Below are positions 7,770 to 40,598 of a stretch of DNA of 64,000 nt, piece by piece. Source of the DNA: an uncultured Pseudomonadota bacterium (GTDB lineage Bacteria > Pseudomonadota > Alphaproteobacteria > Rs-D84); the NCBI GenBank assembly GCA_902802115.1, contig CADCKW010000001.1, positions 152,700-216,699 of the forward strand. The letters are read 5' to 3'. The notes beneath the pieces were generated by a model. That model was given only the letters and a program-made list of their open reading frames with translations, made no database searches and was not told the DNA's origin. The position numbers were made by a program, and so were the translations under genes. Within the stretch, counting starts at the first letter, position 1, and the number at the start of each line of letters is the position of its first letter.

Positions 7770-7847
7770 ATAGATGCGCCGTTGTTTGCGAGCGTAGTGT
7801 ACGTGCGGCTACATGAGCGAGCAAACAACAAGCAGATATTCTATTAT
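7770..7847. repeat. ~78-nt structured repeat, family D copy 2
   Basis: atagatgcgccgttgtttgcgagcgtagtgtac...acatgagcgagcaaacaacaagcagata. Confidence 0.85.
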
Positions 7848-9418
7848 ATTTCGATATATTTCCCATCAATCAAATTCTGTTTGACCACATAATGCTTAAC
7901 CTTTTGCGTCGATGTCATCGGCAAATCATCGGTTGTCATTGCCATATGCGTCACCCATTTATATTTGGCAACGCGTTTATTCGCCTCGGCAACGGCATGC
8001 GACAGTTTTTCTGCGGTCATACCCTCTTCCACACTAAACACACCGTATGCAACCGTTTTACCTTGGACAACATGTTCAAAAACCGCAACATTTTTGACAC
8101 CTGGAATATCTAAAAACAGTGCCTCTAATTCATCTGGATAAACATTTTTGCCACTATCTAAAACAATCACTTGTTTTTTACGACCGGCAAAATGCAATTC
8201 ACCATTTTTATCCATATAGACCAAATCCCCTGTTTTGAAAAATCCACGTTCGTCAAAAGATTCTTTGTTGGCTTCGTCATTGTTCAAATAACCACCAAAC
8301 ACCTGGTGACCACGAACCCATAACATACCAATACCATTTTCATCTTTATCACGAATTTCGCATTCATTATTTCCCAATGGCGCACCAAACGCGTATGGTA
8401 TGCGCTTTTTCACCGGGCGCGAACCACAAAACGGCCCAACGGTTTCGGTCATACCATAACCTTGAATAAATGCGATACCCAAATCATTATAGAATTTTTC
8501 AACCTCTGGCTTGGTTGCCGCCCCGCCCGCAATCATCAACTGAACACGACCGCCAAATACAGCCTTGATTTGTTTTTGCACATTACGCACAATGAATCCC
8601 AGACCGATTTTCTGCAACCATTTTTGGTTTTTCAATATAAAAGAAACAATCCACCATTTTTTCTGGGATTTAATTTCTTCTATAATTTTTTTGCGGAACA
8701 ATTCCCACATTTTAGGCACAGATGGAATCACATGAGGTTTAAATTCTTTGAAATCCGCCAAAATCAATTTTGGATTTATTGATGATTGCAACAAAATACC
8801 CATTTGAAAATGCAGTGGTGCCAAAAATCCCGCAGCAAAACCAAAGATATGATACAGCGGTAAAAAACCATATAACACCCCACCCGGTTCAAACCATTGA
8901 TTAAAATCATCAAAAGAATTTGCACACTCTATCAAATTAAAATGTGTCAGTGGCACAATCTTTGGTGCGCCTGTTGAACCCGATGTAAATGACAATGTTG
9001 CAATATCATTTGCGTTTAATGGGTATGGTTCTAAATCTTCATCTGTTTCTGTGTCCTGGGTTTGAATATCAAAAAATTTAAAACCCGCTGCATCATAGAA
9101 AAAAGATTTTTCCGCCGCGACCAATTTGCATTGGGTAAGTTTCGTCATATTATCATATTCAGTTGGTGTTAAATTTGTATCCAACAACAACACGCGCGCA
9201 CCACGATACCATGCGGCGAACAAAGTCACAATAAATTCTGGAATATTGTGCGCCAACACACCCAAAGTATCACCAAAACCAACGCCAATTTTTTTCAGTG
9301 TTGTTGCACGTGCCTTGATAAATTTTGGAAAATCTTCAAATGTTATTTTTTCGCGGACCAGGAAAAGTGTCTTTGGACACTTTTCCACAGTCTGTTCAAA
9401 GAATTGGTACATATTCAT
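7844..9418 (-). CDS. AMP-binding long-chain acyl-CoA/acyl-ACP ligase, paralog 3
   Basis: FTSGSTGAPK, GYGMTET, FKTGD, GRKK..IVLDSGKNVYP, LPMTSTQKVK. Confidence 0.93.
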   Translation of the reverse strand: MNMYQFFEQTVEKCPKTLFLVREKITFEDFPKFIKARATTLKKIGVGFGDTLGVLAHNIPEFIVTLFAAWYRGARVLLLDTNLTPTEYDNMTKLTQCKLVAAEKSFFYDAAGFKFFDIQTQDTETDEDLEPYPLNANDIATLSFTSGSTGAPKIVPLTHFNLIECANSFDDFNQWFEPGGVLYGFLPLYHIFGFAAGFLAPLHFQMGILLQSSINPKLILADFKEFKPHVIPSVPKMWELFRKKIIEEIKSQKKWWIVSFILKNQKWLQKIGLGFIVRNVQKQIKAVFGGRVQLMIAGGAATKPEVEKFYNDLGIAFIQGYGMTETVGPFCGSRPVKKRIPYAFGAPLGNNECEIRDKDENGIGMLWVRGHQVFGGYLNNDEANKESFDERGFFKTGDLVYMDKNGELHFAGRKKQVIVLDSGKNVYPDELEALFLDIPGVKNVAVFEHVVQGKTVAYGVFSVEEGMTAEKLSHAVAEANKRVAKYKWVTHMAMTTDDLPMTSTQKVKHYVVKQNLIDGKYIEI

Positions 9419-9421
9419 AAT

Positions 9422-11002
9422 TTAAATACCCTTTTCTTGATATTTACCATCGATTAAATATTGACGAACGACATGATGTTTAACCTTTTGTGTTGATGTC
9501 AAAGGCAAATCGTCTGTTGTCATCGCGAAATGGGTCACCCATTTATAAGAAGCAACTTTTTTATTTTTTTCCGCGATTGCCTTTGCCAATTTTTCCATGG
9601 TCATATCACTATCCACAGAAAACACACCATATGCGACAGTTTTACCATTAACCTCGTGTTCGAAAACCGCCACATTTTTAACCCCAGGTATTTCGATAAA
9701 CAAACCTTCCAATTCATCTGGATAAACATTTTTACCGCTATCCAAAACGATGACTTGTTTTTTACGACCTGCGAAATGGAATTCACCGTTTTTATCGCAT
9801 GACACCAAATCGCCTGTGCAGAAAAATCCGTCTTTATCGAAACTTTCTTTATTGGCCGCGTCGTTATTCAAATATCCACCAAACACCTGTTTTCCTTTGA
9901 CCCACAACATACCAATACCGTTTTCGTCTTTGCTGCGGATTTCACAGCAATTTTCACCCAGTGGTGCGCCGAACGCATATGGCACACGTTTTTTTACAGG
10001 TTTAGAACAACAGATTGGTCCAACTGTTTCGGTCATACCATAACCTTGAACAAATGCCATACCTAAATTGTTATAAAAGTTTTCAACCTCTGGTTTTGTT
10101 GCGGCACCACCGGCGACCAAACAGCGCACACGACCACCGAACACCGAACGAATTTGATTCAAAACTTTATCAACCAATTTGCCCATTCCCAGCATACGCA
10201 AAGTTTTTTGATGATTCATAATAAATGATACCAACCACCATTTTTTCTTTGCTTTGACATTATCGACAATCTTTTTACGGAAAATTTCAAACACCTTTGG
10301 CACAGCCGGAATAACATGTGGTTTATATGTTGCAAAATCTTGCAATATTGCATTTGGGTTGATTGTTGATTGCAACAAAACACTCATACCAAAATGCAAA
10401 GGTGCCAAAAATCCAACTGCAAAACCAAACACATGATATAATGGTAAAAATCCATACATCATTTCACCATGGCGCAAGAAAATACTTAAACTTTCCAAAC
10501 TTTCCGAACAAGAAACCAAATTTTCATGCGTTAATGGCACAATTTTTGGGGTACCTGTTGAACCAGATGTAAATGACAGTGTTGCAATATCTTTGTCTTT
10601 TAATTTATAAGCCTTCAAAGATTCACCATCATCTTTATCTTTGGCCTGGATATCCAAAAACTTAAAGTTTTTTGTTTTATAAAAGAAAGATTTTTCTGCA
10701 ACAACAAATTTACAATCTGTGCGTTCAGTCATATTATCGTATTCAATTGGTGTTAAATTTGTATCCAATAATAATACCGTTCCACCAACATACCAAATTG
10801 CAAACAAAGTATAAATAAATTCAGGGATATTATGTGATAACAAACCAACTGTATCTCCTGGCTTTATCCCAGATGCAATCAACGATGCCGCACGTGCCTT
10901 GATAAACTTTGGCAATTGCGAAAAAGTAATATTTTCACGAACCAAAAAAACCATATCTGGATTTTTTGCTATATTCTGTTTTAACAATTCAATCATTGTC
11001 AT
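9422..11002 (-). CDS. AMP-binding long-chain acyl-CoA/acyl-ACP ligase, paralog 2
   Basis: FTSGSTGTPK, GYGMTET, FCTGD, LPLTSTQKVK. Confidence 0.93.
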   Translation of the reverse strand: MTMIELLKQNIAKNPDMVFLVRENITFSQLPKFIKARAASLIASGIKPGDTVGLLSHNIPEFIYTLFAIWYVGGTVLLLDTNLTPIEYDNMTERTDCKFVVAEKSFFYKTKNFKFLDIQAKDKDDGESLKAYKLKDKDIATLSFTSGSTGTPKIVPLTHENLVSCSESLESLSIFLRHGEMMYGFLPLYHVFGFAVGFLAPLHFGMSVLLQSTINPNAILQDFATYKPHVIPAVPKVFEIFRKKIVDNVKAKKKWWLVSFIMNHQKTLRMLGMGKLVDKVLNQIRSVFGGRVRCLVAGGAATKPEVENFYNNLGMAFVQGYGMTETVGPICCSKPVKKRVPYAFGAPLGENCCEIRSKDENGIGMLWVKGKQVFGGYLNNDAANKESFDKDGFFCTGDLVSCDKNGEFHFAGRKKQVIVLDSGKNVYPDELEGLFIEIPGVKNVAVFEHEVNGKTVAYGVFSVDSDMTMEKLAKAIAEKNKKVASYKWVTHFAMTTDDLPLTSTQKVKHHVVRQYLIDGKYQEKGI

Positions 11003-11033
11003 TTTTTATGTCCTTTATTTATAAATGAATAAA

Positions 11034-12614
11034 TTATTCATGTCTGTCAGGATATTTACCATCGATTAAATTTTTCCGCACAATATGATGCTTAATTTTT
11101 TGCGTACTGGTCACAGGTAAATCTTCTGTTGTCATCGCAAAATGGGTCACCCATTTATACGATGCAACTTTTTTATTTGCCTCGGCAACTGCATCTGCCA
11201 ACCTGTCCATTGTCATACCAGGTTCGACACTAAACACACCGTATGCAACGGTTTTATCTTTTACCTTGTGTTCAAACACCGCAACATTTTTTACACCCGG
11301 GATATCTAAAAACATGGCTTCTAATTCATCTGGATAAACATTTTTACCGCTATCCAAAACAATTACTTGTTTTTTGCGACCGGCAAAATGCAACTCACCA
11401 TTTTTATCCATATATACCATATCGCCAGTATTAAAGAACCCTTTGTCATCAAATGCTTCTTTGTTTGCCGCATCATTATTCAAATACCCACCAAACACCT
11501 GATGACCACGCAACCACAAAACACCAATGCCATTTTCGTCTTTATCGCGAATTTCGCATTCGTTATTTGTTGTCGGGCCACCCACAGAAAACGCCATACG
11601 TTTTTTATTTGGTTTTGAAATACAGATTGGTCCAACAGTTTCTGTTAAACCATAACCTTGAATAAATGCCAAACCCAAACTTTCATAGAAAGTTTCAACC
11701 TCTGGCTTGGTTGCGGCACCACCTGCAATCAACAACCTGACCCGTCCGCCGAAAATATCCAAAATAGGTTCTTGGACTTTGCGCACAAAAAATCCCAATC
11801 CCATATCGGTAATGCGTTCGCGATTGCGTAAAATAAATTCCACAATGCGCCACTTTTTTTGTGCCTTCAAAGTATCCATAATCTTATTTCTAAATAATTC
11901 CCACAAACGCGGTACAGCCGGAATAACATGCGGACGGAATTTTTTAAAATCGTCCATAATGTATTTTGGATTAACAGTTGGCTGTAAAACAATACCCGCC
12001 CCAAAATGCACAGTTGCCAAAATACCGATGGAAAAACCGAATATATGATACAAAGGCAAAAATCCATACATAACATCGCCTGAACCAAAATATTCAGCCA
12101 TATCTTCCAACGAATTTGCACACTCTGTTAAATTATAGTGTGTTAATGGCACGACCTTTGGACTGCCGGTTGAACCAGATGTAAAAGACAAAGTTGCAAT
12201 ATCACTGTCTTTGAATTCATACGGGCGCAACATTGGATTTGGCATACCGTCATTTGCGGTAATATCAATAAATTTAAACACATCTGTTTTATAGAAAAAT
12301 GACAATTCTGCAAAAACAAATTTACAATTTGCAATCGTCGCCATATTGTCATATTCAAACGGTGTTAAATTTGTATCCAACATCAATGCGCGCGCACCAA
12401 TATACCATATTGCGAACAATGTCAGCGGAAATTGAGGAATATTATGTGACAACACACCAACTGTATCACCGGCCTTGATGCCATGTTCCATCAGTGTCAC
12501 CGCACGTGCGCGAACCATTTCCATAAATTTTGAATACGTAATCCCTTCACGTACCAGAAACAGATTTTCCGGCCATTGCTGAACCGCTGTTTCTAACATA
12601 GTATTCATACTCAT
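11034..12614 (-). CDS. AMP-binding long-chain acyl-CoA/acyl-ACP ligase, paralog 1
   Basis: FTSGSTGSPK, GYGLTET, FNTGD, LPVTSTQKIK. Confidence 0.93.
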   Translation of the reverse strand: MSMNTMLETAVQQWPENLFLVREGITYSKFMEMVRARAVTLMEHGIKAGDTVGVLSHNIPQFPLTLFAIWYIGARALMLDTNLTPFEYDNMATIANCKFVFAELSFFYKTDVFKFIDITANDGMPNPMLRPYEFKDSDIATLSFTSGSTGSPKVVPLTHYNLTECANSLEDMAEYFGSGDVMYGFLPLYHIFGFSIGILATVHFGAGIVLQPTVNPKYIMDDFKKFRPHVIPAVPRLWELFRNKIMDTLKAQKKWRIVEFILRNRERITDMGLGFFVRKVQEPILDIFGGRVRLLIAGGAATKPEVETFYESLGLAFIQGYGLTETVGPICISKPNKKRMAFSVGGPTTNNECEIRDKDENGIGVLWLRGHQVFGGYLNNDAANKEAFDDKGFFNTGDMVYMDKNGELHFAGRKKQVIVLDSGKNVYPDELEAMFLDIPGVKNVAVFEHKVKDKTVAYGVFSVEPGMTMDRLADAVAEANKKVASYKWVTHFAMTTEDLPVTSTQKIKHHIVRKNLIDGKYPDRHE

Positions 12615-35757: not shown

Positions 35758-37530
35758 TTACATTTTCTTGCGGATTTGAATATGCACATCACGCAGTTGT
35801 TGTTCGGTGACCTCGTTTGGTGACCCCATCAATAAATCTTGTCCGCGTTGATTTGCAGGGAACGCAACGATTTCGCGCAAACTGTCGCCGATACCCAAAA
35901 TCTCGGAAACAACGCGTTCAATACCAAACGCACAACCACCATGTGGTGGCGCACCATATTGGAACGAAGTATATAATCCAGAAAAGTTTTTCTCGACAGC
36001 CTCGATTGGATAGCCGGCAATTTCGAAACACTTTTTCATAATTTCCGGATTATAGTTGCGCAACCCACCACTGCAAATTTCAATACCGTTTAACACCATA
36101 TCGAATTGTGCAGCCTTGATAGAAAATGGGTCGCGTGTTGATAAATCTTCGATTGAATCAACAATAGGATACGAAAACGGATTATGCGTAAATGCCGGCG
36201 CACCACCGCGTTCAGGGTCCGGTTCAAAGAACGGGAAATTATCGACCCAGCAAAACGCGAAATCGCGTTCGCGCACCAAACCCAAATCTGCGCCTAATTT
36301 ATTACGCAATTTACCCGCTGCCTTTGCCGCATTATCGACCATATCACAAATAAAGAACAAAGATGAGTTATCACCTGCAATCTCTTTTAATTTTGCAATA
36401 CGCGCCGCATCTAATTTTTTCGCGACTGGTCCTTTTGGTTCATCGGCAAACACGATATAACCCAATCCGCCCAAGCCTAATTCTTTGACGGCATATTCGC
36501 CCAGTTTATCAAACCAAGAACGCGGACGGTCTGCACTATTTGGTGCCGGCACAGCACGCACAACCGCGCCATTTTCAATCGCATTTGCAAAGATTCCAAA
36601 ATCAGACCCGCGGAAAATTTCCGTCACATCACTGATTAAAATAGGATTACGCAAATCAGGTTTATCGCAACCATATTTCAACATTGCGTCATCATAAGAA
36701 ATATGTGGAATTGTTGGATAAACATTTGCGTCCGGCGCAAAAGTTTTTACCATTTCTGGCATAATAATCTCGCCGATGGCTTGAATATCGCCAACATCAA
36801 CAAAAGACATTTCCATATCTAATTGATAAAATTCCAACAATCTGTCTGCGCGCAAATCTTCGTCCCTGAAACAAGGCGCAATTTGGAAATAACGGTCAAA
36901 CCCAGATACCTGCAACAACTGTTTAAACATTTGTGGTGCCTGGGGCAACGCGTAAAATTTACCATGATGTAATCTGGACGGCACCAAGAAACTGCGTGCG
37001 CCTTCGGGCGAATCCGCGGTCAATAAAGGTGTTTGAAATTCGGAAAAACCCAAATCCCACATTTTATCCCTTAACCATTTCATCATTTTATTGCGCATTA
37101 AAATATTGTAATGCAATTTTTCGCGACGCAAATCCAAGAAACGATATTTATAACGCAATTCTTCACTTGTGTCTTCATCGCCAAAAACTTGGAAAGGTAA
37201 TACTTCGGCATTTGTTAAAACATTAACTTTATCAGCCTTGATTTCAATATGTCCTGTGGGAATTTTTTCATTTATTGCGTCCATATCACGCGCAACAACG
37301 GTCCCTGTAATTTGGACAACAGATTCAGGGCGAATTTTTTCTAATCTTTCGTCCCCACCATCAAACACACATTGTGTAATACCGTAATTATCGCGCAAAT
37401 CCACAAACAACAACGATCCGTGATCGCGTTTGCGATGCACCCACCCAGCCAAAGTGACTGTTTCACCCACATTGGCAATATTTAATTCGCCACAAGTATG
37501 TGTTCTGTATTTAGATTTCAAAGATAACAT
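35758..37530 (-). CDS. aspS: Aspartate-tRNA ligase
   Basis: YRTHTCGEL, RDHGSLLFVDLRD, YRFLDLRR, TPLLTADSPEGAR, ALPQAPQ, QIAPCFRDED, GAPPHGG, AFP.NQRG.DLLM. Confidence 0.98.
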   Translation of the reverse strand: MLSLKSKYRTHTCGELNIANVGETVTLAGWVHRKRDHGSLLFVDLRDNYGITQCVFDGGDERLEKIRPESVVQITGTVVARDMDAINEKIPTGHIEIKADKVNVLTNAEVLPFQVFGDEDTSEELRYKYRFLDLRREKLHYNILMRNKMMKWLRDKMWDLGFSEFQTPLLTADSPEGARSFLVPSRLHHGKFYALPQAPQMFKQLLQVSGFDRYFQIAPCFRDEDLRADRLLEFYQLDMEMSFVDVGDIQAIGEIIMPEMVKTFAPDANVYPTIPHISYDDAMLKYGCDKPDLRNPILISDVTEIFRGSDFGIFANAIENGAVVRAVPAPNSADRPRSWFDKLGEYAVKELGLGGLGYIVFADEPKGPVAKKLDAARIAKLKEIAGDNSSLFFICDMVDNAAKAAGKLRNKLGADLGLVRERDFAFCWVDNFPFFEPDPERGGAPAFTHNPFSYPIVDSIEDLSTRDPFSIKAAQFDMVLNGIEICSGGLRNYNPEIMKKCFEIAGYPIEAVEKNFSGLYTSFQYGAPPHGGCAFGIERVVSEILGIGDSLREIVAFPANQRGQDLLMGSPNEVTEQQLRDVHIQIRKKM

Positions 37531-37600
37531 TTTGGTCCCTTTTAATTATGCGGGCGCCAACAAAAACATGGATTTTTTGGCACCCGGTTTTTTTCAGTTA

Positions 37601-37706
37601 AATTTCGGGGCGCGATTTTAACGCGCGGTGCCACCCGAATTTATCACTTTACCTTGGGCTTTGGAACCTCTGTGGTTGTCAGTCACTTCACCGGCGCCGC
37701 ACCCAT
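37601..37706 (-). promoter_or_regulatory. Compact T-box riboswitch (Asp specifier) in the aspS leader
   Basis: Antiterminator AUUCGGG-UGGCACC-GCGCG-uuaaaau-CGCGC-CCCGAAAU. Stem I GCC[GGU GA A]GUG-ACUGACAAC-CAC[A GA]GGU. Confidence 0.85.
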
Positions 37707-37719
37707 AAAACATACAAAT

Positions 37720-37748
37720 ATGATATAATCAAAAAATACAGTTTGCAA
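37720..37748 (-). promoter_or_regulatory. Sigma70-like promoter for the T-box/aspS leader
   Basis: TTGCAA (37743-37748) - 17 bp - TATCAT (37720-37725) on the minus strand. Confidence 0.6.
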
Positions 37749-37801: not shown

Positions 37802-37968
37802 GTGTTCCAAGGTGTTCTTGGAATCGGGCCTCATAACCCAGCAGTAAGCGCCAGAGTGGCGTAAAAACTCCAACATTGGTTGGAGTGTGTGAATATATCG
37901 AATAAGCACACAAATCTTACTGATTGTTATGAGACTCCAACCACCTTTTATTTTTTGGTGGTTTTTTT
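37802..37968 (+). ncRNA. Unassigned structured RNA (four-way junction plus intrinsic terminator)
   Basis: Closing helices ctcataac/gttatgag and cagtaag/cttactg enclose three hairpins. Terminator aaccacc/ggtggtt followed by a T-run. Confidence 0.7.
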
Positions 37969-37983
37969 GTTTTTATAAAAATA

Positions 37984-38355
37984 ATGGAGATTTCAATGCG
38001 TCGCCCAATAAAAAAAGTTTGTTATCACGATTCTGTATCGGCCCCCGAAAATAAAAAACCACTAAAAATAATGCATAAAAAATTAGACGAATTTCGATGC
38101 AAACTTCCACCCTCTGTCGCGCACGATTTTGATAAAATATATGATGATATTATCACAGAATATTTAAAATCATATCCATTTCAACTCCGCAATATGAACG
38201 ATGATTTTGCATTGCAACTGAATACAATTATTTCAATCGTATCTACAAACAAAATCAACGCGAACATATCGCAAAAAACAAAAAACAATTTGGAACTTAT
38301 AAATCAAGAATCCATTAAACCAATCCGTAATTTAATATTAAATCAACACAAATAA
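37984..38355 (+). CDS. Hypothetical protein
   Basis: 123-aa ORF. 'ggaga' RBS before the second ATG (37996). Confidence 0.65.
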   Translation: MEISMRRPIKKVCYHDSVSAPENKKPLKIMHKKLDEFRCKLPPSVAHDFDKIYDDIITEYLKSYPFQLRNMNDDFALQLNTIISIVSTNKINANISQKTKNNLELINQESIKPIRNLILNQHK

Positions 38356-40524: not shown

Positions 40525-40598
40525 GCCCTAATAGTCTAGTGGTAAAACACGTCCTTGGTAAGGACGAGTCGCAAGTCCGATTCTTGCTTAGGGCACCA
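40525..40598 (+). tRNA. tRNA-Thr(GGT)
   Basis: GCCCTAA/TTAGGGC-A-CCA, CGTCC-TTGGTAA-GGACG, GCAAG-TCCGATT-CTTGC. Confidence 0.94.

Follow-up and report, generated by a model that had tools for sequence, protein, structure and literature searches.

A probable T-box-derived leader of strongly reduced architecture precedes aspS in gut alphaproteobacteria

Our results suggest that aspS, the aspartyl-tRNA synthetase (AspRS) gene of an uncultured ruminant-gut alphaproteobacterium, is preceded by a T-box-family leader that would sense uncharged tRNA-Asp and act on translation. Gene and leader lie on the minus strand of a 64,000-nucleotide (nt) stretch of assembly GCA_902802115.1 (contig CADCKW010000001.1, positions 152,700 to 216,699), which was analysed as a whole and is referred to here as the window. 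In about 30% of the relatives the specifier is AAC, and the tRNA sensed would, judging from this codon, be tRNA-Asn instead. We put the probability of the combined reading, sensing of uncharged tRNA-Asp/Asn with a translational output, at roughly 0.7. Taken by its parts, it is very probable from the sequences that the leader is under selection, derives from a T-box and senses these tRNAs, while a translational output stands at about even odds. The reading rests on the conserved anatomy of the leader, its covariation, the restriction of its codon slot, its exclusive link to aspS and the match of its UGGC bulge to the tRNA-Asn of the clade; binding of tRNA and discrimination between its charged and uncharged forms would follow by analogy with known T-boxes. 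T-boxes are the textbook example of RNAs that sense which tRNA is present and whether it is charged, and they are regarded as mainly Gram-positive.

Anatomy of the aspS leader

All features of the leader are on the minus strand. The minimal Stem I (37655-37705), backed by covariation, reads UGGGU-GC-GGCGCC-[GGU]-GA-A-GUG-(ACUGACAAC)-CAC-A-GA-GGUUCC-AAA-GCCCA. At its base, helix P0 joins UGGGU (37705-37701) to GCCCA (37659-37655) and is paired in 68% of the alignment described below; above it, a C-stem of 6 base pairs (bp), all of which covary, joins GGCGCC (37698-37693) to GGUUCC (37668-37663). Between the C-stem and a 3-bp upper stem (GUG/CAC) lies a kink-turn (K-turn), made of the 3-nt bulge GGU followed by G.A and A.G. 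The upper stem carries the 9-nt specifier loop ACUGACAAC (ACU-GAC-A-AC, 37683-37675), in which the Asp codon GAC (37680-37678) is followed on its 3' side by A. The linker AGGUAAAGUGAUAA (37641-37654), which contains the conserved purine string AAAGUNAUAA, leads to the T-box antiterminator, or discriminator (37602-37640), recognized by its alignment to the Rfam T-box model RF00230, by covariation and by a shuffle test. The antiterminator consists of helix A1 (AUUCGGG/CCCGAAAU), the 7-nt bulge UGGCACC (37633-37627), helix A2 (GCGCG/CGCGC) and the loop UUAAAAU. From P0 to the end of A1 the element measures about 105 nt. A first-pass annotation of this DNA had listed the Stem I and antiterminator features and only about 14 nt between the two; all of them were found at the minus-strand positions that it gave, and the linker is indeed 14 nt long.

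A spacer of about 16 nt separates the antiterminator from a downstream hairpin, GGGUGCCAA ... UUGGCGCCC (37552-37585), seen in the sequence and in consensus folds. It is followed by AAAAGGGACCAAA-AUG, which includes AAGGGA. The Shine-Dalgarno (SD) region AAGGGACC and the aspS start codon occupy 37528-37541, as placed by the open reading frame (ORF), the AspRS family assignment and the SD complementarity statistics given below. A terminator scan of the aspS leader found no U-tailed or terminator-like site, in line with the first-pass annotation, which had seen none. Note that a hairpin elsewhere in the window (ACCACC...GGUGGU, 37940-37985), with a long U run next to it on the plus strand, reads as an intrinsic terminator, which suggests that this genome uses U-tailed terminators, unlike the aspS leader.

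The leader is conserved and covaries in front of aspS

The leader region alone was matched by RF00230 with 32 bits (E = 1.4e-5, under the gathering score of 93 bits). The T-box that the first-pass annotation had proposed is matched, though under threshold, and the score comes almost wholly from the antiterminator (posterior probabilities near 1), with the segments of Stems I, II and III deleted in the alignment. The window holds a single copy of the T-box core pattern, and none of 100 shuffles has any.

Two sets of relatives were used. Twelve alphaproteobacterial metagenome-assembled genomes (MAGs), Candidatus Enterousia-like, were defined by AspRS similarity alone and are thus a sample unbiased with respect to the RNA; all 12 carried GGGUGGCACCGCGC and the K-turn hairpin upstream of aspS. 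In addition, a pattern scan of ruminant and gut metagenome contigs gave 97 further loci. The pattern left the codon and the N of UGGN free, and fixed TGA, GA, some loop letters, AGU.A.AA and GGGUGG.ACCGCG. Residue 1 of AspRS was encoded 48-158 nt 3' of the T-box in every locus with enough downstream DNA (104 of 110). In both sets the orthologous leaders keep the K-turn, the UGGC bulge and a GAC or AAC specifier.

Base pairs were counted by fixed offsets in 96 unique leaders and on a 95-sequence alignment (alignment A1). Pairing was possible in 89.5% of the alignment cells, compared to 36-53% when the partners were slid by 1-3 columns, and the covariation score was 0.50, compared to 0.08-0.14 in the slid controls, a value reached by 0 of 500 shuffles. 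Changes on both sides were seen at 6/6 C-stem pairs, 2/3 upper-stem pairs, positions 4-6 of helix A1 and positions 5-7 of helix A2. Compensatory changes thus back the antiterminator, K-turn, 3-bp stem and C-stem drawn in the earlier annotation. The K-turn, with its 3-nt bulge, G.A, A.G and flanking covarying C-stem, is present in 96/96 unique leaders; its GA/GA is partly fixed by the pattern, yet it is present in the 12 protein-defined relatives as well. A covariance model built from the alignment (R1) matched only the aspS leaders of this clade, with 84-113 bits. No other T-box-like antiterminator was seen elsewhere in the window or in 763 kb of clade DNA, which is centred on aspS and so not genome-wide.

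The distance from specifier to T-box is constant (45-48 nt), and the pattern matches span 65-70 nt despite the 18-nt range allowed. This near-constant span suggests that the C-stem and P0, which lie beyond the K-turn, serve as a geometric ruler.

The specifier alternates between GAC and AAC, and the bulge is always UGGC

The codon slot, free in the search pattern, held GAC (Asp) in 68 and AAC (Asn) in 29 of the 97 metagenome matches, and no other triplet, in keeping with the Asp specifier first proposed. Parsimony requires about ten changes between the two codons on a tree built by neighbour joining from 750 nt of coding sequence. The consensus of the loop is N-C-Y-[G/A]AC-A-M-N, with the triplet always followed by A, and its inner seven letters, CU-GAC-AA, equal the anticodon-loop consensus of tRNAs (C32 U33 NNN A37 A38). 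Since tRNAs with complementary anticodons form stable complexes, recognition of the specifier may resemble these. By its sequence, GAC may accept the Asn anticodon GUU too, through a G.U pair, whereas AAC would shut out tRNA-Asp.

The bulge is UGGC in 110/110 elements. The tRNA-Asn(GUU) of locus L104, the one such gene in the clade DNA examined, ends in G73-CCA, which fits the proposed match of UGGC to a G73-bearing tRNA. Bacterial tRNA-Asp carries G73. Of the joint variation of codon and N73 partner envisaged earlier for the relatives, the first half appeared, the codon toggling between GAC and AAC; the N73 partner stays UGGC throughout. In bacteria that produce Asn-tRNA via GatCAB, a non-discriminating AspRS serves exactly these two tRNA identities, Asp and Asn (PMC2494555, PMC4206432). 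Asn-specifier T-boxes also stand before aspS in four other loci (L021, L022, L067 and L079).

Missing modules and fuller relatives

Above the K-turn, Stem I has only 3 bp and ends in the 9-nt loop, with no AG bulge and no distal loop. Some 14-20 unpaired nt then lead to helix A1, without Stem II, F-box or IIA/B pseudoknot. The absence of distal T-loops, Stem II and pseudoknot was thus borne out, and Stem III is missing as well: AAAGUNAUAA aligns with the Rfam consensus 'AAAGuG-[Stem III]-AAaUa-GGGUGG' minus Stem III, no helix interrupting the string. Such a purine string (RRRxG ... AA) normally flanks Stem III (PMC7583486).

Fuller T-boxes precede aspS in L021 (L021:1679-1833) and L022 (L022:2828-2972), gut MAGs labelled Rickettsiales whose AspRS is 53% identical. 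Their Stem I has a K-turn and a 3-4-bp stem with the loop CAACA or UUAACAC (AAC, then A), and they keep a Stem II with GAA/AGUA motifs, CGGGCAAGCCCGUUA (F-box, CCGUUA), Stem III and an antiterminator with the canonical CGUCC (G.U). RF00230 gave them 49-55 bits, compared to 29-32 bits for the window family, both below threshold. No U-tailed terminator was seen in L021. They apparently represent a second alphaproteobacterial type of T-box that has gone unannotated. In L022, an SD-like UUGGUGA is complementary to CACCA of the T-box bulge region. The T-box motif was absent from the other alphaproteobacterial aspS loci sampled (L013-L066).

Two further aspS loci, L067 (2710-2897) and L079 (769-958), labelled Clostridia or Eubacteriales and with AspRS 50% identical, have T-boxes with a long Stem I and Stem III, no Stem II, an AAC specifier and U-tailed terminators, which scored 71-72 bits against the threshold of 93. 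From these sequences, the window family looks like the end of a series of reductions, from the full form through an ultrashort Stem I with Stems II and III to the window form. The toggling of GAC and AAC, the replacement of A2 G.U by G-C described below and the intermediate T-boxes of other gut alphaproteobacterial MAGs were absent from the first-pass annotation.

Comparison with known T-boxes

The closest described system is the translational T-box of actinobacterial ileS with its 'ultrashort' Stem I (Sherwood et al. 2015; structures 6UFG and 6UFM, from Mycobacterium tuberculosis and Nocardia; both cited after PMC7583486). As in the aspS leader, the specifier there sits in the terminal loop of a short stem right above the K-turn, the distal double T-loop platform and a U-tailed terminator are absent, and the output is presumed to lie at the SD region. 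However, the ileS element keeps a Stem II with S-turn, the IIA/B pseudoknot, Stem III and the A2 G.U, all of which the window element lacks; moreover, host and gene are actinobacterial and ileS in one case, alphaproteobacterial and aspS in the other. The glyQS-type T-boxes of Bacillus, Geobacillus and Oceanobacillus share the absence of Stem II and pseudoknot and a linker that joins the K-turn to the discriminator, but they need a long Stem I with an elbow-binding platform and have Stem III and an intrinsic terminator, none of which is found here. With L021 and L022 the element shares the aspS gene, an Asn/Asp-type specifier in a small loop above the K-turn and the UGGC bulge. These two differ in having kept Stem II, the F-box/pseudoknot region, Stem III and G.U, and look like an evolutionary intermediate.

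An Asn-specifier T-box controls tRNA-dependent Asn synthesis in Clostridium acetobutylicum (Saad et al. 2012, as cited in PMC4206432). In that species, as in L067 and L079, an aspS-linked T-box can read tRNA-Asn (AAC) with a UGGC bulge. Unlike the window element, L067 and L079 have classical long-Stem-I transcriptional T-boxes with U-tailed terminators, and the C. acetobutylicum element is presumably of the same kind.

The full-text literature that we searched held no report of T-boxes in Alphaproteobacteria or of so minimal an architecture. Earlier surveys listed only two proteobacterial T-boxes, typical elements before leuA in Deltaproteobacteria (PMC2494555). The truncated-Stem-I model of TBDB was run as a search of its own on Actinobacteria only, and elsewhere only on sequences already detected by RF00230 (PMC7778990). 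Given this scope and a score far under the Rfam threshold, standard annotation would probably miss the window family.

Complementarity between the SD region and the C-rich strands

For the expression platform, we call a the 5' strand of the T-box, b the 3' strand of the antiterminator (GCGCCCC...), c the strand GG(G)UGCC of the downstream hairpin and d its variable partner. Of 92 unique leaders, 88 have the c:d hairpin, the remaining four being short leaders without it, and the hairpin also appears in consensus folds. Strand c is nearly invariant and d varies via wobbles and mismatches; the constancy of c while its partner varies implies that c has a second, invariant partner. Strand c can pair with b (GCGCCC/GGGUGC) and, without a mismatch along 7 nt, with the bulge (UGGCACC/GGUGCCA; -12.6 kcal/mol). 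Its fourth position is always U and never C, which would fit the pairing with the bulge better than that with b. Note that the GCGCCC and GGGUGC strands are both invariant, hence their competition leaves no covariation signal.

Most genes of the window have an AAGGA SD, whereas the aspS leaders have GGGACC, GGGGUC, GGGUGU, GGUGU or GGCGA. The aspS SD pairs with b at -8.1 and with d at -7.0 kcal/mol, compared to -4.4 and -3.5 for the other SD regions of the window; the best SD partner of each leader averages -8.5 kcal/mol, compared to -4.3 for generic SD regions. In support of a functional pairing, d and SD covary, ACACC occurring with GGUGU and UCGCC with GGCGA, and the residues of d concerned mismatch c and match the SD (permutation p = 0.0002 over 57 unique combinations, kinship ignored). 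The unusual complementarity of the aspS SD regions to C-rich strands makes the output probably translational, the first of the two modes (translational or Rho-based) that the first-pass annotation had suggested. Sequestration of the SD by C-rich strands, i.e. control of translation initiation, would be the best-supported output, which we hold with moderate confidence on the modelled pairings.

In thermodynamic modelling, the antiterminator fold and its alternatives are nearly iso-energetic (median 0.76 kcal/mol, range 0-8). In the lineage with UGCGGGG, a b:SD fold (GCCCCU/AGGGGU) that encloses c:d comes out ahead of the antiterminator fold by a predicted 1-7 kcal/mol; as modelled, this is the arrangement of classical translational T-boxes. 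The SD region is complementary to strand d and to the bulge as well, and b:SD pairing is favoured in some lineages only.

Several other pairings were considered. A simple relay, in which the off state is b:c plus d:SD, is unfavourable in the window (c:d -19, b:c -12 kcal/mol) and was kept only as a lineage-dependent possibility. The minimum-energy fold of the window pairs the C-stem 3' strand GGUUCC (37663-37668) with the SD GGGACC (37534-37539), both on the minus strand; relatives have GGAACC/GGCACC, and this pairing was rejected as not conserved. A 'UCCA' mimic of the tRNA end in the c:d loop was dropped, being present in only 38 of 85 hairpins. A 9-bp helix between linker and start region (AAAGUGAUA with UGUUAUCUUU), seen in the consensus folds of two subgroups, was rejected as a family-wide mechanism: the median linker/start pairing is -3.1 kcal/mol over 61 unique pairs, and 40% of shuffled linkers do as well. 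Only the AAC/AUUCGGG lineage (L004, L011, L095, L105, L130, L149, L155, L170 and L122) shows a strong helix of this kind (-9 kcal/mol); its linker AGUGAUAA is perfectly complementary to UUAUCACU just 3' of the AUG, and its codons 2-4 are synonymous Ser and Leu codons unlike those of other lineages. There, the linker may serve as a lineage-specific mask over the start region.

Many aspS leaders carry, always at the same spot between the c:d hairpin and the SD, a palindromic insertion of about 35 nt (AUCCCACUUCGC...GCUUCGUGGGACAAG). It occurs in L101, L096, L111, L114, L122, L136, L139, L142, L147, L148, L163, L085 and L161, the last with two tandem copies. It is absent from the window (corresponding position about 37543-37573), though the N-terminal part of the L101 AspRS is 100% identical over the roughly 260 residues compared. 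The insertion looks like a small mobile hairpin of the repetitive extragenic palindromic (REP) or miniature inverted-repeat transposable element (MITE) kind.

Proposed mechanism and its rivals

We propose that the anticodon GUC of the tRNA would pair with the GAC shown to it in an anticodon-loop-like heptaloop on the 3-bp stem, while the K-turn would turn the 6-bp C-stem, together with P0, toward the discriminator, where they would act as a ruler. The 3' end of the tRNA, GCCA, when free, would pair with UGGC in the bulge of the antiterminator-like A1/A2, and the purine string AAAGUNAUAA would assist there without Stem III. Binding of uncharged tRNA would lock the C-rich 3' strand of the antiterminator, and the c:d hairpin would form and leave the G-rich SD free. 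Without tRNA, a C-rich strand would pair with the SD, and depending on the lineage this strand would be b, d (a downstream copy of b) or the bulge region. The downstream GGUGCC(A) contains GCCA, like the tRNA 3' end; it may serve as an internal pseudo-ligand, to be displaced by the real tRNA, with the signal passing via c:d to the SD. More tentatively, and with the odds somewhat against it, two sequence-specific contacts, the specifier hairpin on its K-turn and a discriminator lacking Stem III and G.U, would be enough to sense charging in a Gram-negative alphaproteobacterium.

Several results weigh against this reading. The invariance of the pattern-fixed columns among the 97 matches arises partly by construction. 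The element has no distal Stem I platform, no Stem II, no IIA/B pseudoknot and no Stem III. Structural studies from 2019 on concluded that Stem II is essential once Stem I is truncated and that an antiterminator without Stem III does not bind tRNA appreciably (PMC7583486). The canonical G.U wobble of A2 is described as the primary steric sensor of the aminoacyl group. In the aspS leaders, the A2 closing pair beside the bulge is G-C and not G.U in 95/95 sequences, which makes discrimination between charged and uncharged tRNA uncertain. As for the output, no single sequestrator helix is conserved, the predicted anti-SD partner differing by lineage; predicted SD accessibility barely shifts across the family (0.36 compared to 0.42); and in the window leader the antiterminator with c:d is the predicted minimum-energy fold even without tRNA.

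The alternative that best survives is that of a functional minimal T-box whose tRNA-dependent fold alters Rho-dependent termination, pausing of RNA polymerase or mRNA decay instead of sequestering the SD. In its favour are the lack of a conserved sequestrator helix, the predicted stability of the antiterminator alone in many leaders, that of the window included, and the tolerance of the palindromic insertion between the c:d hairpin and the SD. We nevertheless consider this alternative unlikely, since the leader is without an intrinsic terminator, though U-tailed hairpins can be read by eye elsewhere in the window; since a short, structured and A-rich leader would be a poor Rho-loading site; and since the SD regions are unusually complementary to the C-rich strands and covary with d.

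The loss of Stem III and the change of the G.U steric sensor to G-C, together with the thermodynamically favoured 'on' fold of the window, could also mean that tRNA is bound without discrimination of its charge, or that the leader is constitutive and structural; in either case it would be the relic of a fuller T-box of the kind seen in L021 and L022. This is rather improbable, because selection has been strong: while AspRS diverged to 75% identity, 21 pairs were kept with many compensatory changes. Bulge and purine string are invariant and the codon slot moves only between two meaningful codons, whereas a relic would decay.

A protein operator, either for autoregulation by AspRS through a mimic of the anticodon arm, which the CU-NNN-AA loop of the specifier hairpin does resemble, or for a K-turn-binding protein (K-turns being protein-binding sites; PMC7583486), is very improbable, since the GAC/AAC triplet complements the anticodon rather than repeating it, so that the hairpin is not a tRNA-Asp mimic for AspRS binding, which would show GUC or GUU, and since the full T-box sequence with its UGGC matched to G73 would be left unexplained.

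The T-box-derived, tRNA-sensing leader thus remains our preferred reading. By sequence and inferred function, the element has the T-box signature: a K-turn, a matched specifier followed by a purine, and a UGGN-ACC bulge matched to N73, before an aminoacyl-tRNA synthetase gene. It falls short of the class in several structural respects: it has neither an elbow platform nor Stem II, no Stem III and no G.U sensor, and it scores under the Rfam threshold. We therefore regard it as a new structural variant of a known riboswitch class.

The element is of interest as it is conserved in more than 100 sequences without Stem II and Stem III, modules deemed essential. Sensing through two contacts, if true, would overturn the indispensability of Stem II (or an elbow platform) and of Stem III. 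If functional, the element would be the smallest natural tRNA-sensing core and a compact scaffold for engineered tRNA-responsive switches, and it would show a stepwise simplification of the T-box, with intermediates in other gut alphaproteobacterial MAGs. The repeated switching between GAC and AAC would be a natural experiment on whether tRNA-Asp or tRNA-Asn is the one that a cell monitors in adjusting the amount of its AspRS, an enzyme that may charge the two alike.

Locus, host and transcription

The gene encodes a bacterial-type aspartate--tRNA ligase of 590 amino acids (35758-37530, minus strand; NCBIfam NF001750, 704 bits). The closest AspRS loci, with 74-89% identity, come from MAGs of rumen, colon and other gut samples labelled Alphaproteobacteria, Candidatus Enterousia (Alphaproteobacteria incertae sedis according to NCBI) or uncultured Rickettsiales, and the sequencing runs with locus-bearing DNA are bovine, sheep, goat and other gut metagenomes. 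The window also encodes LpxC, an AsmA-like protein, GyrB, UvrB, MnmE and parts of type II/IV secretion systems, which fits a Gram-negative chromosome.

The promoter claimed at 37720-37748 stood in part. A consensus scan found the promoter-like TTGCAA-17-TATCAT there on the minus strand, with a predicted transcript start near 37713, and similar -35/-10 hexamers could be read by eye just 5' of Stem I in relatives; on their own, such matches are no commoner than chance (3 found, 2.4 expected in shuffled sequence). A short upstream ORF (AUGGGUGCG...UGA) that overlaps Stem I was rejected as not conserved. In metatranscriptome contigs from sheep gut and other gut samples, the leader is joined to the aspS coding sequence back to at least the K-turn, and some of these contigs include the variant with the insertion of about 35 nt; they are sparse assembled contigs that may include DNA and carry no information on 5' ends or attenuation.

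Most clade loci have a tRNA-Thr(GGU) gene, which in L001 (L001:2616-2686) shares the strand of the aspS leader and sits about 130 nt 5' of it; 73 such genes were counted across the loci examined. The tRNA-Thr(GGU) gene of the window (40525-40598, plus strand) is about 2.8 kb from the leader and on the other strand, a position unlike that in L001 which suggests that the region has been rearranged. Finally, three tandem ORFs of about 525 amino acids each occupy 7844-12614 on the minus strand of the window, and the two that were scanned encode AMP-binding (adenylate-forming) enzymes.

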